Positions 1-52,444 of a stretch of DNA of 64,000 nt are shown one piece after another (within the stretch, counting starts at the first letter, position 1; each line of letters opens with the position of its first letter). Origin of the DNA: an uncultured Pseudomonadota bacterium (GTDB lineage Bacteria; Babelota; Babeliae; Babelales; CAIQNR01); contig CAYSQM010000001.1 of assembly GCA_964433415.1 (NCBI GenBank), positions 11,468-75,467 of the forward strand, given 5' to 3'. The position numbers were made by a program, and so were the translations under genes. Below the pieces are notes generated by a model that worked only from the letters and a program-made list of their open reading frames with translations, was not told the origin of the DNA and searched no databases.

Positions 1-85
1 ACAAAATAAGGAAGAACATGCTATTCTTTTGAAAGAAACTTTTTTATTTTTATATAGTACTTTTATTAAAATAAGAACTATAAAA

Positions 86-1555
86 ATGATGAAAGATTTT
101 AATTTATCGTATGCTCCTTTAAATCTAAAAATTAATAAAATGACTTCTTTTATTGATTTATTTATTAAGAAACAACACAGTTGTTCAACTCTTGAAGTTG
201 TCTTATTTGGGAAACTAGAAAAGATTGTGAGTGAATTGTTACCTTTAATTGATAACGACAAACTAAAAGAATATTTTGCATTAACATCGCCAAATAACTA
301 TTTAAGTTCTTTGTATAGACTAAAAGATAGTTGTAAGTTATTAAGGCCTGGTCAAGGAACGCAATTGGCCTCTTTATTGCCAGAACTATTAGATACAATA
401 GCCTATTTAGTAGTAAATTATAGCACTGTTTTTTTAACTGAAGTTGAATCATTTTGTGTGATAGAAAAAAAACCTAAAAAAGTTAATTTTTCTTCATCTA
501 TGATCAAATTATTACAATATGTTTTACTTTGTCAGGCATATGCATTTACTAATCAAGACGCTTTAGAAGAGCATGAAAATGCTTTAATTGCAATTTACCA
601 ATTATTTTATGAGTATGCAGAGAAAAATAATTTAATTCCAACTATTACGCTATTGGAAGATCAAGTTTTTAAATTTCCATCTCAATGGAATATGCCTTTA
701 GTTGCAGTCAAGAGTATTGATACATTTAAAGATAGGTCAATTTCAGAATTATTAGCAGATATTGGTGAGCTTGAAGCTCAAGGAATTTTTGTAAAAAAGC
801 AACCTATTAAAACTAAAAAAAAGAAAAAACAAGCACAAGATGTTGTAGAAAAAGTTGAAGCTTTAGTTGATTTAGAAGAGTCGTCGCCTGCCGCTTATCT
901 TGAAGTGGATACTAATATTTATAGTGCTCATAAAAAGATGCCTATTGCATATAATGCACGAGTAAATGATTGGTTTGTTGATCAAGAAAGGGCTTTGACT
1001 GTGCAAGGTTATAAGCAAGGTGAAGACTTTTTTAAACAAGGATTATTAAGCAAGTTTGGTGAAAGAGTAATTGTTTTTAATCATAGATTTCCAAGAATTA
1101 TCGATCAGATTATTTTAAGAGATGTAAAAATTATTCCTATTGTACAAGATGATGGCTCATATTTAGTAAAAATTCCTGGTTATTATACTGATGGAAATGA
1201 ATTACGCCATTTCGGATTTTTTGAAGTAGCGTATTCAATTAAAGAATCTAGTGTGATATCTACTAAAAAGAAAAAAAATGGATCATTGGCTACTAATATT
1301 GAAATTTTTCATAGATTTTTTAGACCAGTAGATGAATTCTCTGATTTATTTTCTAATGCGGGTAATGAACCACCCCATTTTTTAGTTGAAAATGAGCTTG
1401 AAAAGTATGAAATTGAAGCTGTAGAAGCAGTAAATTCAGCGTGGACTGTTGATGAAGAACAAGAAGGGTGGAAGGCTCAATTAGAAAACGAAGAAAATGG
1501 ATTTATATTAATCAATCATCCTGAAAAATTACTTAATTATGTTTTGTTGATTTAA
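86..1555 (+). CDS. hypothetical protein, no signal peptide, no recognised domain
   Basis: Long ORF. The track start at 29 is a TTG; the first ATG pair (MMKDFNLSY) at 86 is more plausible. Internal Lys tracts KTKKKKKQ and STKKKKNG. No motif recognised. Confidence 0.55.
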   Translation: MMKDFNLSYAPLNLKINKMTSFIDLFIKKQHSCSTLEVVLFGKLEKIVSELLPLIDNDKLKEYFALTSPNNYLSSLYRLKDSCKLLRPGQGTQLASLLPELLDTIAYLVVNYSTVFLTEVESFCVIEKKPKKVNFSSSMIKLLQYVLLCQAYAFTNQDALEEHENALIAIYQLFYEYAEKNNLIPTITLLEDQVFKFPSQWNMPLVAVKSIDTFKDRSISELLADIGELEAQGIFVKKQPIKTKKKKKQAQDVVEKVEALVDLEESSPAAYLEVDTNIYSAHKKMPIAYNARVNDWFVDQERALTVQGYKQGEDFFKQGLLSKFGERVIVFNHRFPRIIDQIILRDVKIIPIVQDDGSYLVKIPGYYTDGNELRHFGFFEVAYSIKESSVISTKKKKNGSLATNIEIFHRFFRPVDEFSDLFSNAGNEPPHFLVENELEKYEIEAVEAVNSAWTVDEEQEGWKAQLENEENGFILINHPEKLLNYVLLI

Positions 1556-1566
1556 TATTTAACTAA

Positions 1567-3018
1567 TTAAAATGCGCCACCTAACGTAAGCCATAATCCC
1601 CATTGTTCAAAGCTTTTAGTTGGGTTATGAGGAATTTCAATAAATGCGCCAATGCCTAAAAATCCATCAGCTTTTTTGCCACGAATATGAGTGCCTAAAG
1701 AAGTATGTACTCTATAATTAACCGTTGGTACTGTTTCTCCAGAATTTAAATTAATATCATTTTGAAGGATCGGGGTAAAGGTAGCATCATTAGTAGCTTG
1801 TTCACGAATGGTACTAGTGCTTGCAGTCGTATTAATGGCTGTTCCTGCAATGCCATAAATTTCTTGCCACTGAGCAATAAGTTTTGCTCGTTCTCCGCCA
1901 TGACCCCATACGCCAAATCCAATTTCTGCCATTACTTTATTAACATCCAAGCGCAGGCCAGTAGAAAATTCAACAATACTATAAGGTGATAAGCGTACTT
2001 TTTGAGTTAATATATTAATGGCAGGGATAGTTTGATCAATTATTTGATTTTTTTTCCTTAATAATAAGTATCTGCTCCATTCTTTGTTTTTGAGATCAAA
2101 AGTACGGTACTGATGATTACGTATAAGCCAGGTATTTTCTAGATCAAGAAAAAATGTGCAGGAAGTAAAGCTTTCTTTGCTCGTTAAAGGTGCTTGTAGG
2201 TGGGCTCCCCATAAAAATCCAATATGACCATTATTTCCAATTTGTGGTGTAAAAATATATTCATTTTTTTGTGGCCCAGTCATTGGCAGAGAAATACCAG
2301 AATAAGAAACTAGTAATGCTCGTTCATTAGAAATAAAAGTTTTTCCAAGTTCTAAGCGTAATTCGCCAGGACGTACTGTTGTTTTGTTGCTGGTTGATAT
2401 TTTTTGATAGTTCCAGGTAGGGTTTGTAAATGCACTGACAATATCAAAAACGGTGTTTGTGGTTGGCCCAGCATTGGTAATACGTGATTGGCTAAAATTA
2501 AGATTATTTTTAACAAGTAGAATTGGCATACTGGCAGCAACATACATTGAACTTAAAAAACCTGTTTTAAAGAATGATTTTAATGAATGACGTGCTTGAA
2601 TTTCAAAACATCCTTGGCTTTGTTCAGGTGTTATATTTAAGGTTCCCCCAAAATTGTTAGGTAGACCAAGCCATTCTGGTCGAATATCGCGATTTGCATC
2701 AGTGTTACTTATTACGATTGAATCATGATTTTGCATTAAAAAATATTGCTTTAAAAGTGGAGAAGTTGTGGTGCTTTGAAAACTACCAGTAACTCTAAAG
2801 CCAGTATTTTTTGTTTCATCAAATCCAGCATCATGCCATAAAGTAGTTCGAGTCGCAATGTTTTGGAACAGAGGCCGAGTGAATAAAAAAGTTTGACTGC
2901 TTATTTGAGTTAAGCCTGAATAAAGAGTTGTATCAGCATAAAGAGTTATTTTTACAAAACTTAAAGTTAAGCTTGTAAGTATGAAAGGCAATAATGGGCG
3001 ACTTATATGTTTTTTCAT
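1567..3018 (-). CDS. outer-membrane beta-barrel protein (porin-like), family not recognised
   Basis: Signal peptide MKKHISRPLLPFILTSLTLSFVKITLYA. Gly/aromatic-rich alternating pattern. C-terminus WLTLGGAF ends in Phe, as in BAM substrates. Confidence 0.55.
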   Translation of the reverse strand: MKKHISRPLLPFILTSLTLSFVKITLYADTTLYSGLTQISSQTFLFTRPLFQNIATRTTLWHDAGFDETKNTGFRVTGSFQSTTTSPLLKQYFLMQNHDSIVISNTDANRDIRPEWLGLPNNFGGTLNITPEQSQGCFEIQARHSLKSFFKTGFLSSMYVAASMPILLVKNNLNFSQSRITNAGPTTNTVFDIVSAFTNPTWNYQKISTSNKTTVRPGELRLELGKTFISNERALLVSYSGISLPMTGPQKNEYIFTPQIGNNGHIGFLWGAHLQAPLTSKESFTSCTFFLDLENTWLIRNHQYRTFDLKNKEWSRYLLLRKKNQIIDQTIPAINILTQKVRLSPYSIVEFSTGLRLDVNKVMAEIGFGVWGHGGERAKLIAQWQEIYGIAGTAINTTASTSTIREQATNDATFTPILQNDINLNSGETVPTVNYRVHTSLGTHIRGKKADGFLGIGAFIEIPHNPTKSFEQWGLWLTLGGAF

Positions 3019-3229
3019 GACAATCCTTAAAGGCCTAGTAACAATAAATAATGATCATGAGCTTAAAAAAGCTTAGCAATAAATACAAGAACTTAATAAA
3101 GTTTTTCAGAAAGGAATTAATTTGGCGTTCTCGTTGATCTATTTTTTAAAGTGGCTATCCTTATCCATAAATGATTGCGCTTGAGTCTTAATTCAATTAG
3201 TACTTTATTAAAAAAGGTTTAAAGATTAT

Positions 3230-4837
3230 ATGAAAAAAGTAGTATTAATGATATTAACAATTTTTTTATCAATAAATTTATCAGTATCCTGTTCTGAGAA
3301 AAATTTAATAGAACCTTTTTATATGCAAACTATTTCTACTCCGTTAGGATCTAAAGAATTTAATTTTATACGCCCTATGAGTTCTTTAATGGGAGGGGCT
3401 GTTTCTGCAGTTGATCTTTATACTTCGGCTCAAAATAGTCAAGGAGCTGTAATTATTGCTGCAGCTAAAGCAAGAAAAGAAATTCCTGAAATAATATTGG
3501 TACCACTTGCTTTTTTGCTTCCTCATAATCTAGAAAATATTTTTGATTCTTCATCTACTTATTACTATCAAGTTGTTGGAGATGAGCGATCATTGCAATT
3601 AATAGATGTTACCTTGCCGGTTATTCATTTTTTAAAAATGAATTCATTCTATTTATCTAATGGTATAGGGCATGACCTTTTAATAGGTCATAAGCAAGCA
3701 TTGGAATCATATAATTTATGTCTAAACTTATATCGTCAGCACTATGGCACTATAGAGGGGCAGTATAAAGAGGAAGAATTGCCTGAAAACATCGCTTTTC
3801 AAGGAGTTCCTAATGATGTTGAGGAGGAAGCTAAGAAATTTAAAGAAGATCGTGCGGTATTAAAAAAAATAAGAATAAATTTAGTAGATCAGATTATTTC
3901 TGAATATATTGATGGTGAAGCAAAAGAAATACTTGAAGAAGTTTGTGAAGAAGAAAGAGCTGCAAAAAAAGAATTTTTTTTAGAGCAAAATTTAGAAGCA
4001 AGAAAAAATCAGTCTTTAGAAGTCGATAGTTCTTTAGAAATCGATAGTCCTTTTGCGGTGGGCAACCAGAGTAATAAAAAGAAAAAGCGCAAGTATAAAA
4101 AAAGTTTAGGTGCATCTAGCCAAAATTATGACGAAGATGATTTAGATTCTTTATTGGAAGAAGCTAAAAAAAGTGGTCAAGGGGCGTTTAATCAAAATGC
4201 AAAACCAGAAATAGTTAGACCAAGAGTTTCATTAAGATTTTTGAAGTCTCTTTTGAGTCGTTCTTTGCAAGAAGATAAAAGCGAAAATCAATTTAATTGT
4301 TTATATCTTACCGATGAACAGATGCAAGATATTTTGAAAGCCTATGAAATTATACAATTAGCGTCAGGTATCGATTCAAGGCTTAGAGAAATTGAAGAAG
4401 ATGTAAAATTGTCCGAAATAAATGAAAAAGAAAAAGTAAGTTTTTGTGATGATATTACTTTTAAAAGGGCATTTTTTAATGTTTATAAGGAATATTCTTT
4501 GTATGTTATTAAGTTTAATTATTATATTGAATCTAAAAAAATATTACATTTAATGCCACAAAATCTTAATGTTCTTATTAATAAGACTACTGATTGCTTT
4601 ACAAATCTTTCTGATAAAATGCTTTTAAAAAAGAAAGATAAAGCTTTTGATTTAAACTTAGAAATTATAAATTTTTTTATGAATATTGAGTCAATAAGAA
4701 AAGAATTATATAGCTTTCCGCTCTTTGATAAAGAGTCTTTAGGCTTAGAAGATACAGTAGAAACATTTAATTCAATAAGAAAAATGATGTCTTTGATATT
4801 AAACTTGTCTTTTGATTTAAGGTCGTTGATTCTATAA
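3230..4837 (+). CDS. secreted/lipoprotein candidate, acidic coiled-coil protein with basic NLS-like cluster
   Basis: Signal peptide with lipobox-like LSVSC. E/K-rich central region and a KKKKRKYKK cluster. Contains an 18-bp x2 tandem repeat encoding SLEVDS/SLEIDS. Confidence 0.6.
   Translation: MKKVVLMILTIFLSINLSVSCSEKNLIEPFYMQTISTPLGSKEFNFIRPMSSLMGGAVSAVDLYTSAQNSQGAVIIAAAKARKEIPEIILVPLAFLLPHNLENIFDSSSTYYYQVVGDERSLQLIDVTLPVIHFLKMNSFYLSNGIGHDLLIGHKQALESYNLCLNLYRQHYGTIEGQYKEEELPENIAFQGVPNDVEEEAKKFKEDRAVLKKIRINLVDQIISEYIDGEAKEILEEVCEEERAAKKEFFLEQNLEARKNQSLEVDSSLEIDSPFAVGNQSNKKKKRKYKKSLGASSQNYDEDDLDSLLEEAKKSGQGAFNQNAKPEIVRPRVSLRFLKSLLSRSLQEDKSENQFNCLYLTDEQMQDILKAYEIIQLASGIDSRLREIEEDVKLSEINEKEKVSFCDDITFKRAFFNVYKEYSLYVIKFNYYIESKKILHLMPQNLNVLINKTTDCFTNLSDKMLLKKKDKAFDLNLEIINFFMNIESIRKELYSFPLFDKESLGLEDTVETFNSIRKMMSLILNLSFDLRSLIL
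4013..4048 (+). repeat. 18-bp direct tandem repeat, 2 copies, 1 mismatch, in-frame
   Basis: tctttagaagtcgatagt / tctttagaaatcgatagt, read directly from the sequence. Confidence 0.8.
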
Positions 4838-4961
4838 GAAACTATTTTAAGCTTGATTGTGTGGTTATTCCTATCTGATTGATTATTTGTGTGGTTCCTG
4901 TATTGTAAAAAGTATGGAATTTAATGGACTAATATTTAATAAAATAATAAGAAGTTACTAT

Positions 4962-5972
4962 ATGAAATATATAAAATTTTTAATTATAGCTATATTTGGT
5001 TTTTGTTTTGGGTTAGACCTTAAAGCAAGTCAGCAGCATCCTAAAAAACAAACTTTTACTTCCTCTTTGGCGCAGTGTGAGAAAGCTTATAAAGCTAGAG
5101 TAAAGACAGAAGAAGAAAGAAGAGAAAAAAAATCAAAAAAAAAGCTGGAAAAGAAAGCTAAAGCTAAGGAAAAAAAATATCAAGAAACAGCAGAAGTAGA
5201 AGAGTTTTTTTATGCATTAGACATTCAATATGAAGAAAGTGGAAGTTCTCTTAAAGTTTCTCAAGAATTATCTCAAGAAAAAGTCCTTAATAATATGCAA
5301 ATTGTCCCTTCCCATCAAGATTATAATTTTTCTGGTGCATTAGATGGTGCCAATAATATGCAAATTCTTCCTTATTATCGTCATGATCAATCTATAATTG
5401 ATCATATTTCTAAATATGTTCATGATTCATTGAGAAATGAAACTTCTTCACAATCTGCTGAAAGTGTCCATTCTGTTGCAGCCATTGATGAAGCGGCTGT
5501 GTCTTGCGATGTTCAATTAAGTGGCTCAAAAAAAACAAGTAAATATTCTTCTCAAAGTTCTTCGGGAGCAAGACCATCATTGCCATTATTCGCTTTACCA
5601 CACAGCGCATCAAGATCCTCAGGCCAACCTTCATATTCTAATGATTCCAAAATAGCCTCTAGTAGTTTTCTAAGTAGAAATAAAGTTGCAATAGTAGCGG
5701 TAAGTGCTTTAGTTGGTGGTGTTGCGTATTACGCAGCTACTCGTGGATTAAGGCCAGAAACTATTGTTAAAGATTTGAAAGCAGCTAAAAATTTTTGTGT
5801 GGACAATGCTGGTAAGGCTAAAGAAAAGACTATTGAGTTGGTTGGTGCTGTAAAAGAAAAAACTCCTGAATTAAAATCTAAATTTAATTTTGGATTAGCT
5901 GCTATTGGGAGTTATGCAATAAGTGGTCTTAATAATTTAAAATGGATTTTAGAAAATCCAGAATTAGAATAA
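4962..5972 (+). CDS. secreted/membrane hypothetical protein with Lys-rich tract and C-terminal TM segments
   Basis: The track ORF starts at 4857 on a non-ATG codon. The ATG at 4962 gives MKYIKFLIIAIFGFCFGLDLKA, a signal peptide. Contains RREKKSKKKLEKKAKAKEKK, a Ser-rich middle, and hydrophobic VAIVAVSALVGGVAYYAA and GLAAIGSYAISGL. Confidence 0.6.
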   Translation: MKYIKFLIIAIFGFCFGLDLKASQQHPKKQTFTSSLAQCEKAYKARVKTEEERREKKSKKKLEKKAKAKEKKYQETAEVEEFFYALDIQYEESGSSLKVSQELSQEKVLNNMQIVPSHQDYNFSGALDGANNMQILPYYRHDQSIIDHISKYVHDSLRNETSSQSAESVHSVAAIDEAAVSCDVQLSGSKKTSKYSSQSSSGARPSLPLFALPHSASRSSGQPSYSNDSKIASSSFLSRNKVAIVAVSALVGGVAYYAATRGLRPETIVKDLKAAKNFCVDNAGKAKEKTIELVGAVKEKTPELKSKFNFGLAAIGSYAISGLNNLKWILENPELE

Positions 5973-6018
5973 AAAATTATTTTTTTAATAACATCTTTAA
6001 CTTATAAATGGAGTTTAT

Positions 6019-6822
6019 ATGAAAAAGAAATTAATAACGCTTGGCTTGTTGGTCGGCATTTGCGGAGTTGTTTTTGCAAGTGAATTTGAAAGCGATGATG
6101 ATGGTTTATCATCTGAATTTAAATTATCAAAGGCATCTCTGAAATCAGAAATAATGGACCTTTGTGAAAAGAAGAAAATAGAACGTTCTTTGTTTCTTAA
6201 ATTGGTGAATGAGCCAGCAGAAGTTGATAAAGCAAGAAAAATGTTATTGCGTGCGGCACCTTTATTGCTTAAGACTCTTCCAATATTTTCTAAGGGTGTA
6301 TTTATAACAAAACTTTCTGAATCAAAAATTAAAAATTTTTCTGGTTTATTTTTTCAAGAAAGCGATTCTCTTTCTGGAGATGCTACCCAAGTAGAAAGAG
6401 ACAAAAAATATCTTTCTCAACAAGATCAAGTAAAAAAAACTTTATTGTTATTGTTTCTTTTGACTAAAGATAATCCTTCTATAAAGGTAACTATTAAAAA
6501 TTCTGCAAGGGATGTATATGAGTCATTGCCGGCAGAAGCAAAAGAATTAGTGAGTTATGAAGGTGATTCTTTTTATCAAAATCATAAGAAGAAAATACAG
6601 TTTATTGCCCTGTGTTCATTGGCTTTTTTTCTTTTTAAATATAAAGATTTATTTTTTAAAGATGGCCTTTTGAAAACTCAACTTTTTGCTTTAATAGAAA
6701 AAATAATTTCTGCTTTTAAAACTTATACTATTTCTAAAATGGTTATAGCTTCTGTTGTCTTGCAAAACGCGGGTCTTTATCTTTATCAGACAAGATTTAT
6801 TTCAGCATTAATGAAGGAATAA
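6019..6822 (+). CDS. secreted hypothetical protein with C-terminal hydrophobic segments
   Basis: Signal peptide MKKKLITLGLLVGICGVVFA. The C-terminal region has TM-like stretches (FIALCSLAFFLF, MVIASVVLQNAGLYLY). Confidence 0.6.
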   Translation: MKKKLITLGLLVGICGVVFASEFESDDDGLSSEFKLSKASLKSEIMDLCEKKKIERSLFLKLVNEPAEVDKARKMLLRAAPLLLKTLPIFSKGVFITKLSESKIKNFSGLFFQESDSLSGDATQVERDKKYLSQQDQVKKTLLLLFLLTKDNPSIKVTIKNSARDVYESLPAEAKELVSYEGDSFYQNHKKKIQFIALCSLAFFLFKYKDLFFKDGLLKTQLFALIEKIISAFKTYTISKMVIASVVLQNAGLYLYQTRFISALMKE

Positions 6823-11347: not shown

Positions 11348-11434
11348 TAAACTATTGAAAGCAAGCCTCTTTTAATACTAAACTTATTTTTAATAGAAAT
11401 TTATTTTAAGAGCTGTATTCTGGAGGTTGTGCTT

Positions 11435-13267
11435 GTGAAGAAATTTTATAGTATTTTTTTAATGATAATTGTGAGTGCTTTAAATGCTTCTCAGCCATCA
11501 GTCACTTTGCGTCCTTCTGGTGGTCCTTTAACTCAAATTCAAGAAAATCAAGGTGGGGTAGCAAAAGGAATTAATGACCTTGTGAGTTTAGCAGCTGTTC
11601 CCAATTTATCATTGTTATGGCAAAATAATTTATCAAGTTTAAATCCTTCTAATATAAAATATTACAGAACATTTTTGACTGAGGTTTTTTCTGCAAAATT
11701 AAGTCTTTTGATGGGGTCTGCAGTATGTGTTGCAGATCAAAGTGCTCCACTTGCTTTATCTTTAGTTCAAAATTTACAGTTGTCTCGTTATATTAGATCT
11801 TTTAGTCAAGGATTTAATCCAACTACTTCAGCACCAGCGTCTGGACAGTATGCAGGTCAAGCGCTCTCTCCAGCAGATACGTTTGCCGGTGTTATTGTTA
11901 TAAATAATTTTTCATCTCAGTATAAAAATATTGGATTTCAGGCCGCTTTTGTAGATCAAGGCTCAGATGTTAATGGAAATACTTTATATTCTCCAAATAC
12001 AATTACTCTTTTGCCAGATTATCAACAAAATTCAGCTTATGATGGAGCGGTTTTTTCTCAAAGTACAGAAACAAACAACGGCTTTGTTTTTCCTGGAGAT
12101 GTTAAATTTATTCCGGCATTAGATTTTACAGATTCTTGGTATGATCATGACAATGAGTTATGGCAAGACACTACTCCTATTCGATCTGTATGGTATAGAA
12201 CTGCAGATCTTAATCAGGATAATGCAGATTATCAGGCTTTAACTTTAAATGGTACCGCACAAACGCCAGTTTATGGTGCATGGACAGGTGTTCTTATTTC
12301 TCAAAAAAATGGTGTTCCTTTTGTTCAACTTTTTCAAAATGATTATAGTGGAATTATTTATAAAGGAACAGATACTACTAATGCAGATGTTCAGAATTTT
12401 TTTAATAATGACCCTGGTGTTCAATGGGCGCCTGTTTTATTAATAAGTGATAATGGATTGGGTAATGGAACAGGAACAATTGATATTATTGGGTTAGTAA
12501 AATTGAATCCTTATTATTTTCCATTATATTACAGTGGTTTTATAGTGCCTGAATCAACAAAGTTTACTTATGATGCAAATAATAATCCAAATGCAATAAC
12601 CTCTTATGTTAATCCAGCAACTAATTTAACTTATTTCTCAGAAAGAAAAATTTTTGATTCTATTGTTACTATTTTTAATAATGCTTCTGCGTTGGGTGAA
12701 ATGCCTCAAGCAAATTATGCAGTTAATCCAAGCTTACTCTATATGCCAACTTTACTCACTACTAAAAACGTTCCAATTACAGAAGATAGTAGTAAGAATT
12801 TTCTTCCCACTTCATGGGTAGCTATTGCTCCAAAGTTTTTGCCATCAGGTGTTGGAGTTTCTCTTGTTTTATCTCAGCCTCTTGTTAATCCAAAAACTCC
12901 TTATCTATGGGATGCAGGGACAGTATATGCTAACGGACAGCAACTTTCAGCTTATGGGCACTTGCAAAATTTTGCACTTGCAAAAATGGTAGGATTGTTG
13001 CAAATGGATACAATTCCTGGTGATTCTTCAAATGCTACGTATGAATCTCTCTTTAAGCAATCGATTGCTGAGCTTAAAAAATATTATATATTGCCAGGCT
13101 TTTTAACCAATATAAAAGATGGTACTGGGTTATCTGCAATAGAAAGATTGCTTAATGCCCCTAGCTCTAGTCAATCAATTGTATGGGCTGGGCAGACTGA
13201 TACTTTTATGCCAGCTAATGGTAGTTATGTTCCTGCAGTAAAAGTATCAACAATTATTCAACAATAA
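11435..13267 (+). CDS. secreted low-charge N/Q/S/T/G/Y-rich protein (surface-structure candidate)
   Basis: The track starts at GTG 11429. The GGAGG at 11423-11427 is better spaced for GTG 11435, giving MKKFYSIFLMIIVSALNA (signal peptide). Its composition is strikingly poor in K/E compared with its neighbours. No motif recognised. Confidence 0.65.
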   Translation: MKKFYSIFLMIIVSALNASQPSVTLRPSGGPLTQIQENQGGVAKGINDLVSLAAVPNLSLLWQNNLSSLNPSNIKYYRTFLTEVFSAKLSLLMGSAVCVADQSAPLALSLVQNLQLSRYIRSFSQGFNPTTSAPASGQYAGQALSPADTFAGVIVINNFSSQYKNIGFQAAFVDQGSDVNGNTLYSPNTITLLPDYQQNSAYDGAVFSQSTETNNGFVFPGDVKFIPALDFTDSWYDHDNELWQDTTPIRSVWYRTADLNQDNADYQALTLNGTAQTPVYGAWTGVLISQKNGVPFVQLFQNDYSGIIYKGTDTTNADVQNFFNNDPGVQWAPVLLISDNGLGNGTGTIDIIGLVKLNPYYFPLYYSGFIVPESTKFTYDANNNPNAITSYVNPATNLTYFSERKIFDSIVTIFNNASALGEMPQANYAVNPSLLYMPTLLTTKNVPITEDSSKNFLPTSWVAIAPKFLPSGVGVSLVLSQPLVNPKTPYLWDAGTVYANGQQLSAYGHLQNFALAKMVGLLQMDTIPGDSSNATYESLFKQSIAELKKYYILPGFLTNIKDGTGLSAIERLLNAPSSSQSIVWAGQTDTFMPANGSYVPAVKVSTIIQQ

Positions 13268-13268
13268 A

Positions 13269-14039
13269 ATGAAGGATTTTCTTATGAATAAAAAAAATAT
13301 ATTTATTGTTTTAACTATGATTAATGGATTATTTTTAATAAATCATATTAATGGTGCAACAAAGTTTTTCACTAATACAGCCCTTAATTATAGCATTAAT
13401 CAAGAACAGGTAAATTACTATTGGAACGATAGATTATGGGGTGTTCGTATTAATGTCTCTTCAGATCTTACTAAAGATCCAATAACAGAGCTTCCTAAGA
13501 TGGTGAGCTCTGGCAGCACTCTTACTGTAACTCCTTCTTCAACTATTACTATAGTAAAAACAAATGCTTACAATTTAACCCCTGTTGCAGCTGATTATGC
13601 AAATATTGTTAATTTTGTTATTCCGTCTCAATATAAAATAGAAGTTCTTAAAGGGCAGACTTCTTATATTTCATTATGTCCTACTAATATGACTAATTTT
13701 GTAAATAATAATGAGCAGAATGATGATTTTAATATGGGTCTTCCTAGTTTTTCAATGACTCTTTTAAATGGTCTTACTGCTTGGGAATCAAAAACTAAAT
13801 TTAATAATAAAGAAGATTTTAATGTTGCAGAATCAAAGGTCTATAATGTGTTAAATTATTGTTCACTTTTTAAACCAATTTCTGGGGTAAGTCTTGATGC
13901 ATTAATTGATCAATTATACACACCATTAGCAGTTGATGTGACTCAATATTATAAGAACAATCAATCAAATTTTCCTTTTAATATGACACTTAATTTAAAT
14001 AGTCAGACGTACCCAACTTATCAATTGGGTTCTCTTTAG
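13269..14039 (+). CDS. secreted low-charge N/T/S-rich protein, coupled to the upstream gene
   Basis: Starts 1 nt after the stop of the upstream ORF. Hydrophobic leader NIFIVLTMINGLFLINHINGA. Same compositional style as the upstream ORF. The 3-prime end overlaps the convergent alaS stop by 4 nt. Confidence 0.6.
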   Translation: MKDFLMNKKNIFIVLTMINGLFLINHINGATKFFTNTALNYSINQEQVNYYWNDRLWGVRINVSSDLTKDPITELPKMVSSGSTLTVTPSSTITIVKTNAYNLTPVAADYANIVNFVIPSQYKIEVLKGQTSYISLCPTNMTNFVNNNEQNDDFNMGLPSFSMTLLNGLTAWESKTKFNNKEDFNVAESKVYNVLNYCSLFKPISGVSLDALIDQLYTPLAVDVTQYYKNNQSNFPFNMTLNLNSQTYPTYQLGSL

Positions 14040-19585: not shown

Positions 19586-21535
19586 ATGTTTGTAAGGGTA
19601 AAACTTCTTAATGGTTTTCCAGAACCGCTTTTGTATAAAATTCCTGATTCATGGGAAATAAAACCTACGCAAGGTTCATTACTTTCTGTGCCATTACGTG
19701 ATGTATTAGTCCCAGGATTTGTTTTAGATTGGACAGAGACTGCGCCATTTACTACCTTTGATATTCGTCCAGCTCACTCATTAGAGGCATTTCCTCGTGA
19801 TCCTTATTATTTTGAATTTGTTAAATTAATTAGCGCTTATTATCGTACCGATTGTGTCTATACTATTAAGCGATTACAAAATTTTTTATCAAAAAAAACT
19901 GAACAATTAGTTATTGAACCGCATGTACCGTTGGGTGATCAACAAGAAGTTAATTTAACTGAAGAACAGCAAGCAGTAGTTGATTTTTTGACTCCATGCA
20001 TAAGTGTACCAGTTTATCAACCTACAGTGCTTCATGGAGTTACTGGTTCTGGGAAAACAGAGGTTTATAAAAAATTAATTTTACATGCTTTGACTCAAAA
20101 AAAATCGGTTTTATTATTGTTGCCAGAAGTTACTTTAGCAGTACAATTTGAAAAACTTTTAAAGCGTCAATTGCCCTTAAATATGCCAATTTTTAGTTTT
20201 CATTGTGCAACAAGCGCTAGGGATCGTAAGCAGCTTTGGGCAAATCTATTGCAAGAAAAACCGCAATTAATTATTGGGGTTCATTTGCCTATTTTATTGC
20301 CACTGCCAAATCTTGGATTAATTATTATTGACGAAGAACATGAAGTTGGATTTCAGGAAAAAAAACATCCTAAATTTAATACAAAAGATATAGCGCTAAT
20401 GTGTGCATCTAGTCATAAGATTCCTATTTTATTAGGTTCAGCAACGCCATCATTGCAAACATTACATAATGTGCAAACGCGTCAATGGAAATTTTTTCAA
20501 TTAAAAAAACGATTTGCAGGCGCTTTTCCTTTGATAGAATTTGTGCAGTTAGCTGATAAAAAACAGCGTAAAAGTTTTTGGATAAGTACTCAATTGCACG
20601 CAGCATTAAAAGAGAATATACAAAAAAAAGAGCAATCTATTATTTTTTTAAATAGGCGTGGAATGGGTTTTTTTGTGCAATGTAAAGCATGTTCATTTGT
20701 TTTTATGTGTCGATCTTGTTCAGTTAGTTTGACGCCTCATAAAGATAATTTACTCAAATGTCATTATTGTTCTTATCAACAAAAGAAACCAGAAACTTGC
20801 ACTAAATGTTTAAGTGCTGAATTGATTTCTAAAGGTATTGGCACGCAACAGGTAGTGACTATTCTTGAACGGATGTTTCCTAATGCATCTATTGCACGAG
20901 CAGATATGGATTCAACGGTGGATCGAAAATTGTGGACTCATGTGATGGATGGGTTTGAGCGTGGAGATATTGATATTTTAGTGGGTACTCAGACAATTAC
21001 TAAGGGTTATCATTTTCCCAATGTCACTTTAGTAGGCGTTTTGTGGGCGGATGTTAATTTGAATTTTCCATTATATAATGCTCAAGAAACAACTTTGCAG
21101 CAAATTATTCAAGTAGCAGGTAGGGCAGGAAGACAGCATTTAGGAAGTAAGGTTATTGTTCAGTCGCTTGCAGATCATACACTTTTTAAATTTGTAAACG
21201 AAACCGATTATCCGGCTTATTATAAGTACGAAATTGAAAAGCGCAAAGAGCTTGGTTATCCTCCAACAAAGCGCCTTGCTGAAATTGAAGTTAAACATAA
21301 AAATGAACAAATTTTAGAAAAAGATGCAGCACGTTTAGCATTTGAATTAATGAGTTGTTCTGATATTAAGGTTCTAGGACCCGCGCAACCACCAGTTGCA
21401 AAAATTAAAGAATTATTTAGTAGAAAAATTTATATAAAATCAGATAATTTTACAGCGATAAATAATGCACTTAATAAAATTAATATAAAATATTACAAAG
21501 TAAAAATTTATTTTACACCTAATCCACAAGTTTGA
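19586..21535 (+). CDS. priA: primosomal replication protein N-prime (PriA helicase)
   Basis: Walker A GVTGSGKTEVY, DEEH box, and Cys-rich zinc region CKACS..CRSCS..CHYCS..CTKC. Confidence 0.9.
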   Translation: MFVRVKLLNGFPEPLLYKIPDSWEIKPTQGSLLSVPLRDVLVPGFVLDWTETAPFTTFDIRPAHSLEAFPRDPYYFEFVKLISAYYRTDCVYTIKRLQNFLSKKTEQLVIEPHVPLGDQQEVNLTEEQQAVVDFLTPCISVPVYQPTVLHGVTGSGKTEVYKKLILHALTQKKSVLLLLPEVTLAVQFEKLLKRQLPLNMPIFSFHCATSARDRKQLWANLLQEKPQLIIGVHLPILLPLPNLGLIIIDEEHEVGFQEKKHPKFNTKDIALMCASSHKIPILLGSATPSLQTLHNVQTRQWKFFQLKKRFAGAFPLIEFVQLADKKQRKSFWISTQLHAALKENIQKKEQSIIFLNRRGMGFFVQCKACSFVFMCRSCSVSLTPHKDNLLKCHYCSYQQKKPETCTKCLSAELISKGIGTQQVVTILERMFPNASIARADMDSTVDRKLWTHVMDGFERGDIDILVGTQTITKGYHFPNVTLVGVLWADVNLNFPLYNAQETTLQQIIQVAGRAGRQHLGSKVIVQSLADHTLFKFVNETDYPAYYKYEIEKRKELGYPPTKRLAEIEVKHKNEQILEKDAARLAFELMSCSDIKVLGPAQPPVAKIKELFSRKIYIKSDNFTAINNALNKINIKYYKVKIYFTPNPQV

Positions 21536-21561: not shown

Positions 21562-22320
21562 TTATTCTTTATTCTCTTCTTGATCAAAAGCTTCGCTTGC
21601 TAAACGTTTTTGAGAACTTTGATCATTATGAATAAATTTTCCATGGGCTTTTAATTCAGATAGAATTTTGTATCCATGAGCGCAACCAGGATAAGTGCAT
21701 TTATATGGTTTTGTGTCGCCATGTAATGCAAGAGAGTGTGATTTCAAGGTGGAACTGCAGTTAAATGTCTTATTACAATGAAAACATTCAAAAGGTTTTA
21801 TGCCAGTATGAGAACATAAGTGTATCGTCAAATTAGACTGGCTAGTGTATGATTTATTACAATCAGGATAAGTGCATTTATACGGGGTTTCTTTAGTATG
21901 GACAGGCATATGACATTTAATGTGCTGTCTATAATCACTTGAATAGTCACATTCATTACATTTAAATTTTTCACCCTCATCTTTTTGTGCTCTTTCAATA
22001 GAATTAAAAGCTAAAGAAGCGATATGTGATTTAAACATTCCTCCTGTTTGCGGATTAAAGACTGGATTGGTTAATGGACCAGTCTTTTTATGCGCGTAAT
22101 TTTTAAGAAAGTTGTTAACTGAACCTTTTGTATCATCTTCATTTTTGCAAGTTCTTAAATGAACTTGTAGCTCAGAAGCTTCAGCATAAGTGAATTCACA
22201 CTCAGCGTTATGGCATTTTTTAACATCTTTTAAATTAGTTCTATTGACAGAGGCATCATCTTGTTGACTGCTATATAAACAACTTGTAAATAAAAAGGTA
22301 GTTAATAATATTTTTTTCAT
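21562..22320 (-). CDS. secreted protein with four tandem eukaryote-type C2H2 zinc fingers
   Basis: The ATG at 22320 gives signal peptide MKKILLTTFLFTSCLYSS. Fingers: FKCNECDYSSDYRQHIKCHMPVH, YKCTYPDCNKSYTSQSNLTIHLCSH, FECFHCNKTFNCSSTLKSHSLALH, YKCTYPGCAHGYKILSELKAHGKFIH. TGEKP-like linkers: HTKETPYKC, HTGIKPFEC, HGDTKPYKC. Confidence 0.8.
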   Translation of the reverse strand: MKKILLTTFLFTSCLYSSQQDDASVNRTNLKDVKKCHNAECEFTYAEASELQVHLRTCKNEDDTKGSVNNFLKNYAHKKTGPLTNPVFNPQTGGMFKSHIASLAFNSIERAQKDEGEKFKCNECDYSSDYRQHIKCHMPVHTKETPYKCTYPDCNKSYTSQSNLTIHLCSHTGIKPFECFHCNKTFNCSSTLKSHSLALHGDTKPYKCTYPGCAHGYKILSELKAHGKFIHNDQSSQKRLASEAFDQEENKE

Positions 22321-22476: not shown

Positions 22477-23067
22477 CTATTCTGAATCATTGACTTGTTT
22501 TTTTACCATTTTTTCTGTTTCAATTTTTTTCTTAGGTTCTTTTATTGAGATGATTTTAATTGATTTAAGTGCCTGGAAATGAATCTCTTTTTCTTCTAGG
22601 GTTTCTCCTTGAATTTTTCCGCAAGTAATAGTTCTGTTTGCTTCAATTAAGTATGTATCAGATTCGCCTTTAGTGGGGGTAAAAGTAACAGCGATATAAT
22701 CACGGCCTTTGAAGGTTTCTAATTTTCCTGGATTTTTCACTTCGATAGAATTTTTAAAATCATCTTTTAAGTGCATTAATTCAATTAAATCGATGTATGT
22801 TTTATTAATAGTTGGATCGATATCGGGAGCTGTAGGACGAGAGTACACAGAAATTTTATTATATTTTCTTGATATGCAAATATTGTGAGCTTCAAATTCA
22901 TTTCCTGATGTATCAAGAACTATTCCATAAAAATTAACATCTGGTTCGCTACCTGTACCATCAATATTAGTATTATTTGTGGTGTCTCCCATATTTATAC
23001 AAAAAATAATGGCAATTAATGTTGAAGCAAGTCTTAACGAATTATTTTTTAAAAATGTTTTTTTCAT
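22477..23067 (-). CDS. secreted hypothetical protein
   Basis: The ATG at 23067 is preceded by GAGGG with 7-nt spacing. Leader MKKTFLKNNSLRLASTLIAIIFCINMG. No motif recognised. Confidence 0.6.
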   Translation of the reverse strand: MKKTFLKNNSLRLASTLIAIIFCINMGDTTNNTNIDGTGSEPDVNFYGIVLDTSGNEFEAHNICISRKYNKISVYSRPTAPDIDPTINKTYIDLIELMHLKDDFKNSIEVKNPGKLETFKGRDYIAVTFTPTKGESDTYLIEANRTITCGKIQGETLEEKEIHFQALKSIKIISIKEPKKKIETEKMVKKQVNDSE

Positions 23068-28202: not shown

Positions 28203-28293
28203 TGGAGGAGAGAGTGGGATTCGAACCCACGATCCGCTATTAACGGATAACGGTTTTCAAGACCGTCGCTATCGACCACTCAGCCATCTCTCC
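28203..28293 (-). tRNA. tRNA-Ser (anticodon UGA), CCA encoded
   Basis: The reverse complement GGAGAGATGGCTGAGTGGTCGATAGCGACGGTCTTGAAAACCGT...GGTTCGAATCCCACTCTCTCCTCCA folds as a cloverleaf with a long variable arm. Anticodon loop is CTTGAAA. Confidence 0.9.
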
Positions 28294-43922: not shown

Positions 43923-44522
43923 TTATAGGTGAGCTAGAATTTTTGTTTTGAAAAGTTCTTTGTCATAAGTTCCTTCAATTTGTTCCTGAACTTTATTATC
44001 TTTAAGAACAAGAATGGTAGGAATACAATTAATAGAAACATTATAGTTTGTTTTTAAAAATTGTATTGTTTCATCAGAGTCTTCAAATGAATCAACTTCA
44101 ATTTCTGCACAGACTATTTTTTTTTGTAATTCTCCAGCAACTGTTTTAAAAGATGCAGCCATTGCATTATAAGTAGTGCACCAATCAGCTTTTATATTCA
44201 ATAAAACAGGAACCTTAACAGTACGTAAAATATCATGATTTTTTGGATTAATAGTAAAAAAAAGTGGAAAGTTTTGTGTTGTTGTTTTTTCTTGAATAGG
44301 TTCTTTTTTTGTAACGATAGATTTTTTTGATGAACTAAGAGAAGAATCTTTGGCCAAATTATCTTCGGCTTTAACAGATTCTTTTAAGAAATTATGAGAA
44401 TTTATTCTATTTCTTTTGCTCTTTAAATTAGAACGTGCAGCAGCGATATTATGCGTGAAAAAAGAAAAATAAGCACTAATAACAAGTACTAGTGCTTTAT
44501 ATAAATGGCTTTGCATATGCAT
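43923..44522 (-). CDS. membrane-anchored thioredoxin-fold protein with monothiol WCTTY motif
   Basis: N-terminal anchor LYKALVLVISAYFSFF. Trx-like core with WCTTYNAM in place of WCGPC, and a cis-Pro loop IPTILV. The start overlaps the trxA stop (TAATG). Confidence 0.6.
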   Translation of the reverse strand: MHMQSHLYKALVLVISAYFSFFTHNIAAARSNLKSKRNRINSHNFLKESVKAEDNLAKDSSLSSSKKSIVTKKEPIQEKTTTQNFPLFFTINPKNHDILRTVKVPVLLNIKADWCTTYNAMAASFKTVAGELQKKIVCAEIEVDSFEDSDETIQFLKTNYNVSINCIPTILVLKDNKVQEQIEGTYDKELFKTKILAHL

Positions 44523-44842
44523 TAGCCTATAAAATCTTCAATTATATTCTTAAGATCATTTTTATTGATATAACCGGTTTCTTTATGCTTAATTTCATTA
44601 TTTTTAATAAATACAAAAGTAGGCACAGAAGTTACACCATAATGGATAGAAAGTTCACGAGCTTCATCAACATTTAGCTTAGCAAATTTGATTTTGCTAT
44701 TTAATTCTTTTTCTAGTTCTTCAAAAACAGGCGCCATTTGTTGACATGGTCCACACCAAGTTGCGTATACATCAATGATTATTGGTAATTGAGATTGTGC
44801 AATTTCTTGTTCGATATTTTCTTTTGTTATGGTAATAGCCAT
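44522..44842 (-). CDS. trxA: thioredoxin
   Basis: 106 aa with WCGPCQQ active site and SVPTFVF cis-Pro loop. Confidence 0.92.
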   Translation of the reverse strand: MAITITKENIEQEIAQSQLPIIIDVYATWCGPCQQMAPVFEELEKELNSKIKFAKLNVDEARELSIHYGVTSVPTFVFIKNNEIKHKETGYINKNDLKNIIEDFIG

Positions 44843-44998: not shown

Positions 44999-45526
44999 TC
45001 AAGACGCGTAACGTAGTGAAGCCGTCGGATCCATTTTAACGGCGCCAGCATAAGAAGAAACAAGTGTATGCATTGTTGAAGATATTTTTTTACTTAATAT
45101 TAATGGGGTTATGCCATTAATATTTTTTATTGTTGGGTTAGCATTTAACTTAAGAAGTGTTTCTGTTCTTTGGTAATTATTGTGGCTAATTGTATAGTGA
45201 AGTGCAGTGTGTAGTGTAGGTTTGTTTTGCTTATTAACCATAAGCGCAATCGATTCTTTTTTGAAAACAATTAAAAATTCAAATAAAGGGCATTCATTAT
45301 GTTGGGCTGCATAATGAAGAATAGTATTGCCTGCAAGAGAGCTGTTTAAATGAGCATCATGAGCTAATGCTAATTTAGCAAAATAGAGTGCGCCAAATCT
45401 ATTGTCGCATCCAGAAAAAATTTTTGTATGTAGAAATATTTTTGAATTGCTTAAAATTTCTTTTTCAGAACTTGTTAATGATAAAAAAGTAAAAAAAATA
45501 ATGAATTGTAAGAAAATATTTTTCAT
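44999..45526 (-). CDS. secreted ankyrin-repeat protein
   Basis: Signal peptide MKNIFLQFIIFFTFLSLTSS. ANK units: GNTILHYAAQHNECPLFEFLI, TALHYTISHNNYQRTETLLKLNANP, GITPLILS. Confidence 0.8.
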   Translation of the reverse strand: MKNIFLQFIIFFTFLSLTSSEKEILSNSKIFLHTKIFSGCDNRFGALYFAKLALAHDAHLNSSLAGNTILHYAAQHNECPLFEFLIVFKKESIALMVNKQNKPTLHTALHYTISHNNYQRTETLLKLNANPTIKNINGITPLILSKKISSTMHTLVSSYAGAVKMDPTASLRYAS

Positions 45527-51165: not shown

Positions 51166-52182
51166 TTATTTATGACCGTCTGGCGTGCCGCTTTCTAATA
51201 AATGTAAGATTGATTGATCAAAATCAGCGATCGATTTTGCATAATCTAATGCTGATTTATTAAAAGTATCACGCAATGTTAAATTTCTAGTAAACAGACG
51301 TAAAGACATACCATAACGGCCACGTTCTAGTTTTACTGGTTCTGGGGCATGCCATAATAATTGGGTGATGATTGGATAATTTTTTGCAATAACTGCATCT
51401 ATAATAGGTGTTCTTTGTTGTGCGCCGCGGGCATTTATTTCTGCTCCCATAGAGAGTGCTCGAATGCATGCTACTTCTTCTTGAGATGTTTGTGCTGCAG
51501 TAGTTGTAACCGGTTTTTTTGGAATGACAAAATTTGGTTTAGGTTTTTGTTTAGCAGATAAAAGAGCAAGTTGTTTTAAATCAACTACAGGTTTTATAGC
51601 TAATTTTTTCATTTTTTCAGCAAGCATTAAAATTGGCGAAAGCTCATTTTTTGCTATGATATTTAAAAAGCTATTTCCAAGATGATTTTTATAATTTATT
51701 TCTGCGCCTTTTTCTTGCAGTATCTGAGCAATTCTATTGTACCCAAGGATAAGTGCTAGAAATAAAGGAGTTAATCCATTTTGATCTTCTATATCAAGTG
51801 AAACAATTTCCGCAGTAGCTTTTGGTTTTTGTCCTAAAAAAACACCAATTCTTCCAAAAACAGCTTCTCGAGTTGCTGCTTTAGTTTGTTCAGCAATAAA
51901 GTCGGTTATACGGTCAACCATTAAGATAGTTTCTTGTGTATCTTTTTCATCAGAATGTTGTAATAAATAATTATGCAAAGGAGTTTCTCCTGAATCATCA
52001 AGAGCAAGAGGATTAGCGCCAGCTTTTAGAGCTTCAATTGCTTGGGCAGCATTATTTTTAGCCAAGGCCGCGATTAAATGATCTTGTGCTCTTGCATCAA
52101 CATTAGAGCATAAAGCTTCTTTTGAGCTTATCATAAGGCTCATAAAGAAAAATATAACGATACTGATTTTACGAGTGTTCAT
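51166..52182 (-). CDS. secreted ankyrin-repeat protein
   Basis: GGAG lies 8 nt before the ATG at 52182. Signal peptide MNTRKISIVIFFFMSLMISS. ANK units: GETPLHNYLLQH, GLTPLFLALILGYNRIAQILQEKGAEIN, RTPIIDAVIAKNYPIITQLL. Confidence 0.8.
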   Translation of the reverse strand: MNTRKISIVIFFFMSLMISSKEALCSNVDARAQDHLIAALAKNNAAQAIEALKAGANPLALDDSGETPLHNYLLQHSDEKDTQETILMVDRITDFIAEQTKAATREAVFGRIGVFLGQKPKATAEIVSLDIEDQNGLTPLFLALILGYNRIAQILQEKGAEINYKNHLGNSFLNIIAKNELSPILMLAEKMKKLAIKPVVDLKQLALLSAKQKPKPNFVIPKKPVTTTAAQTSQEEVACIRALSMGAEINARGAQQRTPIIDAVIAKNYPIITQLLWHAPEPVKLERGRYGMSLRLFTRNLTLRDTFNKSALDYAKSIADFDQSILHLLESGTPDGHK

Positions 52183-52444
52183 TTTAAACTCCATTTATTA
52201 TTTTATGTTTATTCATATGAATAATCTCTTAATCATACATATTAAATTTAAACAAATTTACCCATTAAATACTATAAAAAGCTGCATCACTGCTTATTTT
52301 TTGTAAGGTTACTCTTATCACTTTTAAACTCTAGAAGGGAGTTTTTTAGGAAATTGAAGATTTTATTGTTTTAAATTATGCTGTGAATCTTAGAAAGAGG
52401 GGATATACATTAAAAATAGCATAATATAGAAAAAGGGTATAAGC

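Follow-up and report, generated by a model that had tools for sequence, protein, structure and literature searches.

A Tandem C2H2 Zinc-Finger Protein with an Export-like N-Terminus in a Dependentiae Bacterium: A Candidate Eukaryote-like Effector Encoded at a Hypervariable Locus

Introduction

Few bacterial effectors that read host DNA directly are known to us, with the transcription activator-like (TAL) effectors as the main example. TAL effectors of Xanthomonas and Ralstonia are modular repeat proteins that are delivered to the host and read its DNA by 33–35-amino acid (aa) helical repeats with variable di-residues; they depend on type III secretion, carry explicit nuclear localisation signals and possess an acidic C-terminus. 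In this study, we analysed a gene encoding a tandem C2H2 zinc-finger protein with an export-like N-terminus. The gene lies on contig CAYSQM010000001.1 of an uncultured bacterium (assembly GCA_964433415.1), within a stretch of 64 kb (contig positions 11,468 to 75,467) that was analysed at its full length and is referred to as the window. Its product, the window protein, shares with the TAL effectors the concept only and can be regarded as a functional analogue of unrelated fold; membership in the TAL effectors was ruled out, as no such Pfam match was obtained and the fold is a different one according to AlphaFold and Foldseek.

To our knowledge, the Dependentiae (TM6), to which the window is assigned below, are known only as intracellular parasites of protists. 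They are widespread and almost uncultured, and little seems to be known to date about their host manipulation beyond lists of ankyrin proteins. Such signal-bearing ankyrin proteins of Chromulinavorax destructans and Babela massiliensis, which combine a Sec signal with a eukaryote-type domain as the window protein of the same phylum does, have been proposed as secreted host-manipulation factors (PMC6561590). In Chromulinavorax destructans, signal peptides were reported for 44% of the coding sequences (CDSs) and for 78% of 98 ankyrin proteins, and Sec-dependent secretion as well as vesicles were proposed by the authors for factors of host manipulation (PMC6561590). Furthermore, components of Sec and of type II secretion belong to the core of the phylum in TM6 genomes, with gspD present in two copies (PMC4776705). 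Putative effectors of Dependentiae are commonly labelled by a Sec signal. As read from the sequence, an export-like N-terminus fused to a eukaryote-type domain was seen in the window protein and in two ankyrin proteins of the window; unlike the ankyrin proteins of Dependentiae, the former carries a finger array of the nucleic-acid-binding type instead of a protein-binding repeat.

MoHTR1 and MoHTR2 of the rice blast fungus are the closest functional precedent. Both are small pathogen proteins in which a C2H2 finger domain comes after a signal peptide, and MoHTR2, described as a nuclear effector, was located in rice nuclei when assayed in protoplasts (PMC12488382). The likeness is one of architecture; unlike the two fungal proteins, the window protein is bacterial and harbors four plus one fingers.

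The fingers themselves resemble eukaryotic C2H2 arrays such as those of WT1, GLI, CTCF, ZFP568, and TFIIIA in their ligand spacing, hydrophobic core, seven-residue linkers (one of them TGIKP), and predicted beta-beta-alpha fold, with 30–40% identity over the array. Unlike these arrays, the window protein is encoded on a bacterial chromosome, has an export-type N-terminus, lacks KRAB, BTB, SCAN, or any other eukaryotic partner domain as well as Arg/Lys at the contact positions, and revealed no specific eukaryotic orthologue in our searches. Proteins of the Ros/MucR family are bacterial and coordinate zinc by Cys2His2 as well; they are cytoplasmic regulators with a single finger of different spacing embedded in a larger globular domain. 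None of the Pfam matches of the zinc-finger protein at E values up to 1 was to Ros/MucR, and membership was ruled out on this ground and by the four tandem fingers with eukaryotic spacing.

In an earlier annotation of the window made from its letters and open reading frames (ORFs), here called the sequence-only reading, tandem Krueppel-type arrays had been regarded as a eukaryotic hallmark. While all homologs found for the window protein apart from a near-strain ortholog were of eukaryote type, a tblastn search of PLSDB also revealed arrays annotated as C2H2-type zinc finger proteins on plasmids of Candidatus Cardinium, Burkholderia, and Salmonella (Table 1). Cardinium is an intracellular symbiont that carries its C2H2 gene near an ankyrin gene, and in the products of the Burkholderia sp. 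MS455 genes a long N-terminal region precedes numerous fingers joined by TGEKP linkers. These plasmid proteins are similar to the window protein in displaying tandem eukaryote-type fingers with TGEKP-type linkers on bacterial replicons; they differ from it in sequence (30–34% identity), in lacking a Sec-type N-terminus, in being plasmid-borne, and in their partner regions. Judged by these sequences, they do not form one orthologous family with it, and they are apparently uncharacterised. The literature searched, which did not cover subscription journals, contained no characterised bacterial tandem C2H2 effector and no link between Dependentiae and zinc fingers, both terms occurring together only in a review on bacterial methyltransferases. 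What is new here is thus a candidate eukaryote-like effector, or nucleomodulin, with a domain type that we did not find functionally characterised in bacteria in this literature.

Zinc-Finger Array and Protein Layout

The minus-strand ORF of the zinc-finger protein opens MKKILLTTFLFTSCLYSSQQDD... and encodes a protein with a predicted mass of 28.7 kDa. Its ATG at position 22320 is preceded at a distance of 8 nt by a weak purine-rich stretch (AGAGAA), similar to other genes of the window, and was also picked by gene callers in independent assemblies. An alternative TTG start at 22356 leads to a product of 264 aa. The residues 131–243 originally given for the fingers apply to this longer reading, whereas from the ATG the fingers correspond to residues 119–231. 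Behind its export-like N-terminus, the protein carries one degenerate finger of C2HC type, from which a spacer of 60 aa leads to the four C2H2 fingers in tandem; an acidic tail closes the chain (Table 1, in which the finger helices are read at positions -1, 1, 2, 3, 4, 5, and 6).

Scanning the whole window in six frames with the pattern C-x2-4-C-x12-H-x3-5-[HC] resulted in five matches, all inside the zinc-finger ORF, compared with 0.28 matches on average and at most 2 in 50 mononucleotide shuffles. The ORF with its four ligand spacings was present exactly as described in the sequence-only reading, as were the linkers HTKETPYKC, HTGIKPFEC, and HGDTKPYKC between the four fingers and the extra C-x4-C-x12-H-x3-C element upstream. 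The Pfam profile zf-C2H2 (PF00096), proposed at that time as a check, matched three stretches of the protein with 38.8 bits (E = 9.9e-10) and thereby exceeded its curated gathering threshold of 25.2 bits; related finger families of Pfam matched more weakly. In NCBIfam, no family was found for the protein or for its 196-aa neighbour. The core residues were present in all fingers: position 10 is Leu or Ile, and the aromatic residue, Tyr or Phe, occupies position 4 except in finger 1, where it stands at position 2 and places this finger in a CTCF/REST-like subtype. Nine ligand columns (C121, H141, C149, C154, H167, H171, C179, C182, and H195) were invariant in a comparison with ten diverse finger proteins.

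Structure prediction by AlphaFold, based on an alignment of 12 sequences, yielded four confident beta-beta-alpha units for residues 120–232 with a predicted local distance difference test (pLDDT) of 78–91, finger 2 reaching 82–91. Residues 1–43, 80–113, and 236–252 remained under a pLDDT of 50, the acidic tail being modelled as helical with low confidence. Foldseek against the PDB revealed WT1, GLI, CTCF, and Aart as best matches (E about 1e-8), and the sequence matches in the PDB were DNA-bound arrays, i.e., ZFP568 (1e-44), Aart, CTCF, PRDM9, WT1, ZBTB24, GLI, TFIIIA, and YY1. Altogether, the four fingers are genuine tandem C2H2 fingers of eukaryote type as judged by pattern, profile, and predicted fold, and zinc binding is predicted for them.

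Scanned alone, the C2HC element reached an E value of 0.0039 for zf-C2H2 with 18 bits, i.e., under the cut-off, and its pLDDT was only 57–69. It reads as a degenerate fifth finger because its core residues are right (Table 1), and it is identical in the ortholog of a second strain.

Divergence between Two Strains

An ortholog (P0017) was identified on a 3.6-kb contig from run SRR21713528 with the same gene order. Over 3,610 aligned nt, the two strains differed at 44 positions, 37 of which were located within the 759-nt finger gene (Fisher p = 4e-19), so that this gene is about 20 times more divergent than its surroundings. Most of these differences fall into a hotspot of 200 nt (Table 1). At the protein level, the finger proteins were 89% identical, compared with 100% for the neighbouring Bax1-I protein and the C-terminus of PriA and 99% for the 196-aa orphan. 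Counting after Nei and Gojobori revealed 27.5 non-synonymous and 6.5 synonymous differences in the finger gene, corresponding to a ratio of non-synonymous to synonymous divergence (dN/dS) of about 1, while the flanks (Bax1-I, orphan, and PriA C-terminus) showed 2 non-synonymous differences in 1,339 sites (p = 4e-12 versus the finger gene).

The differences are unevenly distributed along the protein. Alignment columns 61–148 comprise 21.5 non-synonymous versus 2.5 synonymous differences, and fingers 2–4 comprise 5 versus 4; residues 1–60 show a single change between the alleles, and the acidic tail none. Residues 81–118, belonging to the spacer, vary most, with fourteen substitutions and one insertion. 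In the helix of finger 1, the ortholog carries changes at positions -2, -1, 2, and 6 (D>Y, Y>H, Q>H, and C>Y, respectively), and three of them (-1, 2, and 6) are canonical base-contact positions. Every zinc ligand is kept, i.e., all 20 residues.

Divergence in the hotspot amounts to about 13%, compared with a synonymous divergence (dS) of about 0.012 in the flanks and roughly 0.5% in intergenic DNA. Since this exceeds the local neutral estimate more than tenfold, relaxed constraint alone is insufficient as an explanation.

Predicted Role and Alternative Explanations

Taking sequence and models together, we tentatively favour the interpretation that a protist parasite exports the window protein via Sec as a eukaryote-like zinc-finger effector, which would act on host nucleic acid; its secretion, nuclear entry, and DNA binding are what we infer from these data. 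The sequence-only reading, which had proposed a host-DNA-targeting effector acquired from a eukaryote, is borne out in part. The N-terminal signal would route the unfolded, zinc-free chain through Sec, and exit could follow via the conserved type II secretion system of the phylum or via outer-membrane vesicles. In the reducing cytosol of the host, the fingers would fold around zinc, and the mature protein of roughly 27 kDa (26.7 kDa), which by its size could enter the nucleus passively, would diffuse through nuclear pores. The four-finger array would then read about 12 bp of host DNA, or structured RNA, and alter host gene expression, while selection imposed by the host would drive the turnover of the contact residues in finger 1 and of the adjoining spacer. 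The predicted binding to DNA is favoured by the architecture of the array, the lengths of the linkers, the TGIKP linker, relatives that are mostly found in DNA complexes, and the changes at contact positions. The invariant acidic tail resembles a short activation or recruitment motif, a role that it might have here.

Several points weigh against such an effector and are given in the following, together with the alternatives on which they bear. Concerning selection by the host, a dN/dS above 1 is not significant with two alleles (binomial p = 0.33), and the synonymous divergence of the finger gene is raised about fourfold over the flanks (p = 0.02). Instead of positive selection in situ, a diverged allele could therefore have been imported by recombination. 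In the alleles compared, the finger locus is hypervariable either way, as host-interaction genes often are.

Further points concern the N-terminus, which consists of a basic n-region (MKK) and a Thr/Ser-rich, moderately hydrophobic core of 13 residues (I4–Y16). With a best 10-residue Kyte–Doolittle mean of 1.86, it is the least hydrophobic of the signal-like N-termini in the window, most of which reach 2.2–3.4. It lacks an A-x-A cleavage site, the best candidate site for signal peptidase I being L-Y-S|S, and it displays a lipobox-like L-F-T-S|C14 as a candidate site for signal peptidase II, so that the protein is possibly a membrane-anchored lipoprotein. The signal peptide that the sequence-only reading had called classical is therefore signal-like in its MKK and I4–Y16 segments and departs from the classical type in its weak core and its ending; a plausible signal peptide seems the more suitable description. 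Export as such, be it of a soluble or a lipid-anchored protein, is probable. The exported chain would take about 14 cysteines, or 13 after cleavage at the lipobox, across a periplasm in which a signal-bearing thioredoxin-fold protein is present, and type II secretion genes are absent from the window.

One alternative, which we consider unlikely, is that the protein resides in the envelope, either as a lipoprotein or as a periplasmic, outer-membrane, or surface protein. Its Cys/His modules would then bind zinc or a protein partner, e.g., in metal capture or in contact with the host surface, and would never meet host nucleic acid. The lipobox-like site fits a loose PROSITE-type pattern, the signal peptidase II LspA is encoded in the window (54805–55272), and Leu at +2 favours sorting to the outer membrane in classical models. 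Helices poor in basic residues and a mildly basic array would suit such a location as well, and a surface antigen would also account for fast non-synonymous evolution. However, Phe at -3 falls outside the strict lipobox ([LVI][ASTVI][GAS]C), and a related signal-bearing paralog on contig L005 (see below) has Phe in place of the Cys. Moreover, the relatives in the PDB are all nucleic-acid binders, linker-joined C2H2 arrays are without known role in the envelope, and thiolate-coordinated zinc sites are, by established chemistry, ill-suited to an oxidising compartment.

Returning to an effector acting on host nucleic acid, the contact residues of the array raise the question of its target. None of the four fingers possesses Arg or Lys at helix positions -1, 3, and 6, nor at position 2; the residues at -1/2/3/6 are Y/Q/H/C in finger 1, S/S/N/I in finger 2, C/S/T/S in finger 3, and I/S/E/A in finger 4. 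The isoelectric point (pI) of the array is 8.85, i.e., only mildly basic, while Zif268 and WT1 have a pI of about 10. The linkers TKETP, TGIKP, and GDTKP are of the right length, TGIKP being the only one near the TGEKP consensus, and a classical nuclear localisation signal was not found in the protein.

These properties would also be compatible with a host-delivered protein whose fingers bind host RNA or proteins rather than a DNA sequence, for which TFIIIA with 5S RNA, WT1 with RNA, and Ikaros/FOG-type fingers with proteins are precedents. We regard this alternative as doubtful, too. In its favour are helices that are rich in Ser, Thr, Asn, and Gln and lack Arg at the contact positions, two non-canonical linkers out of three, a pI close to that of TFIIIA fingers 1–3 (9.05) rather than to that of Zif268, and the presence of TFIIIA and of a WT1–RNA complex among the sequence and fold matches. 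On the other hand, the alleles differ at the canonical base-contact positions of finger 1, and the nearest solved relatives are mostly DNA complexes. An AT-rich protist genome might moreover be readable by Asn/Ser/Thr/Gln-rich helices; speculatively, such helices would suit AT-rich protist DNA, or RNA.

It is improbable that the protein regulates genes of the bacterium itself, either in the cytoplasm or tethered to the membrane, and that its N-terminus is not an export signal. Bacteria do use C2H2-like Ros/MucR fingers as regulators (cited in PMC12491435), and the six-finger C2H2 protein of the Salmonella conjugative plasmid, which has no signal, is encoded beside transcriptional regulators. 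However, MKK followed by a 13-residue hydrophobic stretch would put the C-terminus outside the cytoplasm, the protein has no Ros/MucR match, and extreme divergence beside identical housekeeping neighbours is atypical of a housekeeping regulator.

Even less credit can be given to a decaying, functionless relic of a transfer from eukaryote to bacterium, in which fast evolution would reflect relaxed constraint. An overall dN/dS of about 1 and the lack of a wider bacterial family in the searches made would agree with decay. However, the ORF is intact in both strains with its ligand residues, first 60 residues, and tail conserved, the divergence of the hotspot is far above the local neutral rate, and codon usage is fully native.

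Contamination by eukaryotic DNA or a chimeric assembly, to which the eukaryotic appearance of all non-self homologs might point, can be dismissed: Logan assemblies of runs SRR13608705 and SRR13608733 match the window with 100.000% identity along 10,759 and 8,831 nt, respectively, the locus is syntenic in a third assembly and lies 26 nt from priA, and the gene is intron-free, with a purine-rich stretch ahead of its start. Its GC content of 0.32, GC content at third codon positions (GC3) of 0.206, and codon log-score of 0.229 fall within the distribution of the other 48 ORFs (means of 0.325, 0.198, and 0.256, respectively). Identity in two runs, gene context, and typical GC content and codon usage therefore exclude contamination, chimerism, and a very recent transfer, and the gene is native to the bacterial genome.

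Relatives and Origin

A word-indexed search of 5.8 billion proteins returned the protein's own cluster, including the 253-aa variant P0017, and otherwise matches with 27–46% identity over 21–63% of the query, which cover its finger-bearing half. Matches with a named source were eukaryotic (frog, fungus, insects, newt, and mole-rat), and the remaining ones were located on short metagenome contigs. An exhaustive HMMER search of 1.84 billion representatives resulted in 93,443 matches; the best 150 were long multi-finger proteins of eukaryote type that aligned from residue 79 onward, and none of them except the query itself covered residues 1–78. These best 150 are uninformative on orthologs scoring below them. 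When residues 15–117 were searched alone, no homologue was obtained. JGI metagenomes and IMG/VR scanned with N-terminal patterns gave no match, a metagenome and viral scan with the finger region returned finger ORFs at 30–40% identity and no orthologs, and a phage collection contained no match to the protein. In the searches made, the protein is thus without full-length relatives outside its own lineage as far as sequence similarity reveals.

Apart from one near-strain ortholog, all homologs found were eukaryote-type finger proteins, in line with the origin proposed in the sequence-only reading. Acquisition from a eukaryote, possibly via a giant virus, is plausible in view of these homologs, but no donor could be traced and codon usage is fully native.

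During these searches, a 262-aa protein with two N-terminal C2H2 fingers (P0016) was also observed on an 83.5-kb contig (JGI 3300013010 Ga0129327_10000014; L006:8001-8789). This contig encodes mostly domain-less ORFs together with a RING-finger protein and a Peptidase_S74 protein, and we take it as giant-virus-like. Where giant-virus-like elements with finger genes share a host with bacteria, they could serve the latter as an intermediate source.

Other Finger Arrays with Export-like N-Termini

Two tandem paralogues identified on contig L005 combine similar elements (Table 1). In both, the ATG is preceded by AAGGA, in the manner of a bacterial ribosome-binding site, and both start with MKKQxNIxLIALFTILT[C/F]EY, followed by a Thr/Pro/Glu-rich spacer and C2H2 fingers. 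The first gene (P0014) encodes three fingers and the second seven, the latter with perfect TGEKPYKC linkers. An ORF on contig L007 with a hydrophobic N-terminus revealed TGKKPHKCTYPNC-type linkers and a basic tail, GAKRKRINTNKNQTSNKRKH, which resembles a bipartite nuclear localisation signal. The entropy from finger to finger peaks at helix positions -1 and 3 in the arrays of both contigs, and additionally at 5 and 6 in those of L005. Judged by their sequences, the arrays on L005 and L007 hint that export-tagged finger arrays may be more widespread among compact genomes.

It is a far-reaching and, at present, rather doubtful idea that the window protein and the L005 and L007 arrays might belong to one unrecognised class of poly-zinc-finger nucleomodulins of protist-infecting bacteria, delivered by Sec and type II secretion. 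If true, this class would be a bacterial counterpart of the TAL effectors built from the eukaryotic finger module, and an arms race with host genomes would lead to a rapid turnover of its base-contact residues. The window protein itself, with an export tag on a small finger array and sharp differences between strains that are otherwise nearly identical, is a credible and concrete candidate for the reprogramming of a protist host, and its array might provide compact DNA-binding modules from a new natural source. If the protein resided in the envelope instead, the C2H2 fold would unexpectedly be in use outside the cytoplasm.

Genomic Context and Source Organism

The zinc-finger gene ends 26 nt from the end of priA (19586–21535, plus strand), with polA and alaS beyond. 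The other flank comprises the 196-aa orphan together with genes for a membrane protein of the Bax1-I/YccA type, an ABC-F ATPase, and a Na/Ala symporter. The orphan gene is syntenic in both strains and 99% identical; its product had no Pfam match, and its AlphaFold model was unusable (pLDDT 34). In a scan for promoters and terminators, sites were no more frequent than in shuffles.

Table 1. Positions of the zinc-finger gene, its protein segments, and the other features mentioned in the text. Positions without a contig prefix refer to the window.
Feature	Position	Strand	Description
Zinc-finger gene	21562..22320	-	ATG start; 252 aa and stop codon
Export-like N-terminus	22270..22320	-	Residues 1-17, MKKILLTTFLFTSCLYS; from sequence and hydrophobicity compared with other window ORFs
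Degenerate fifth finger (C2HC)	22147..22215	-	C36-x4-C41-x12-H54-x3-C58; found by regular expression; Tyr at position 4, Leu at position 10
Spacer	21967..22146	-	Residues 59-118; residues 80-113 predicted disordered
Finger 1	21898..21960	-	C121-x2-C124-x12-H137-x3-H141; helix YRQHIKC
Finger 2	21808..21876	-	C149-x4-C154-x12-H167-x3-H171; helix SQSNLTI; followed by linker TGIKP
Finger 3	21721..21786	-	C179-x2-C182-x12-H195-x4-H200; helix CSSTLKS
Finger 4	21628..21699	-	C208-x4-C213-x12-H226-x4-H231; helix ILSELKA
Acidic C-terminal tail	21565..21624	-	Residues 233-252, NDQSSQKRLASEAFDQEENKE; pI 4.5; same in both alleles
Divergence hotspot	21900..22099	-	27 of 44 differences in 200 nt; Fisher p = 6e-24 versus rest of alignment
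196-aa orphan	22477..23067	-	Signal- or anchor-like N-terminus; upstream same-strand neighbour, 156 nt away
Ankyrin-repeat protein	44999-45526	-	Signal-like N-terminus MKNIFLQFIIFFTFLSLTSS...
Ankyrin-repeat protein	51166-52194	-	Signal-like N-terminus ...RKISIVIFFFMSLMISS...
Two tandem paralogues	L005:24-1025, L005:1070-2224		ENA ERZ27247313 k141_66602; 2.2 kb, GC 0.405
ORF with hydrophobic N-terminus	L007:~70-1020		SDBV01390562.1; 1.2 kb, GC 0.336; N-terminus MPYITKTISIALVVYALTDC; seven C2H2 fingers
C2H2-type zinc finger protein, Candidatus Cardinium plasmid CP101108	L015:3222-4049		Three fingers; two genes from ankyrin protein
C2H2-type zinc finger protein (x3), Burkholderia sp. MS455 plasmid NZ_CP041780	L016:1-8312		Huge tandem genes
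C2H2-type zinc finger protein, Salmonella conjugative IncFII plasmid CP074271	L017:2998-3780		Six near-perfect fingers, then C-terminal tandem repeats

As a marker for the bacterium, the leucyl-tRNA synthetase (LeuRS, 46178–48625) was used. Among its best 120 relatives, those named by organism were mostly Candidatus Babeliales, Babeliaceae, Chromulinivorax, and Dependentiae with 67–68% identity, and metagenomic proteins reached 88%. Based on this single marker, the organism belongs to the order Babeliales of the Dependentiae. These affinities and the two ankyrin proteins of the window with signal-like N-termini bear out the earlier assumption of a host-associated bacterium. A search of GTDB representatives with PriA revealed as nearest relative a protein with 89% identity on a 1.3-kb contig of the metagenome-assembled genome 'Gammaproteobacteria bacterium WB8_3_061' (L003, RGPR01000275.1; window 19586–21535), a name in NCBI that, by comparison with LeuRS, is probably a taxonomic mislabel. 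An interpretation involving Legionellales and Dot/Icm, derived from this label and a Glu-rich C-terminus, was overturned by the affinities of LeuRS to Dependentiae.

The window is AT-rich and harbors many ORFs without a Pfam domain (e.g., 29–6822, 11429–14039, 29520–31100, 32566–34793, and 55708–60849). About half of the ORFs possess signal-like N-termini, among them those for BamA, Skp, LspA, and the two ankyrin-repeat proteins. With MKK and a hydrophobic segment at the start of about half of all ORFs, the window resembles a large exported orphan proteome.

The gene for the signal-bearing thioredoxin-fold protein (43923–44522, minus strand) is located directly upstream, in window coordinates, of a gene for a cytoplasmic-type thioredoxin (44522–44842, minus strand), with an overlap of one base. 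Its product may be a periplasmic thiol-redox partner, relevant to the handling of Cys-rich exported proteins.

One listed ORF (31147–31530, plus strand) is spurious, with an atypical GC3 of 0.34 and a negative codon score; it overlaps tRNA-Arg (31197–31273) and tRNA-Ser (31416–31507) genes on the opposite strand. Further tRNA genes of the window encode tRNA-Ser (28203–28293) and tRNA-Leu (31954–32040).

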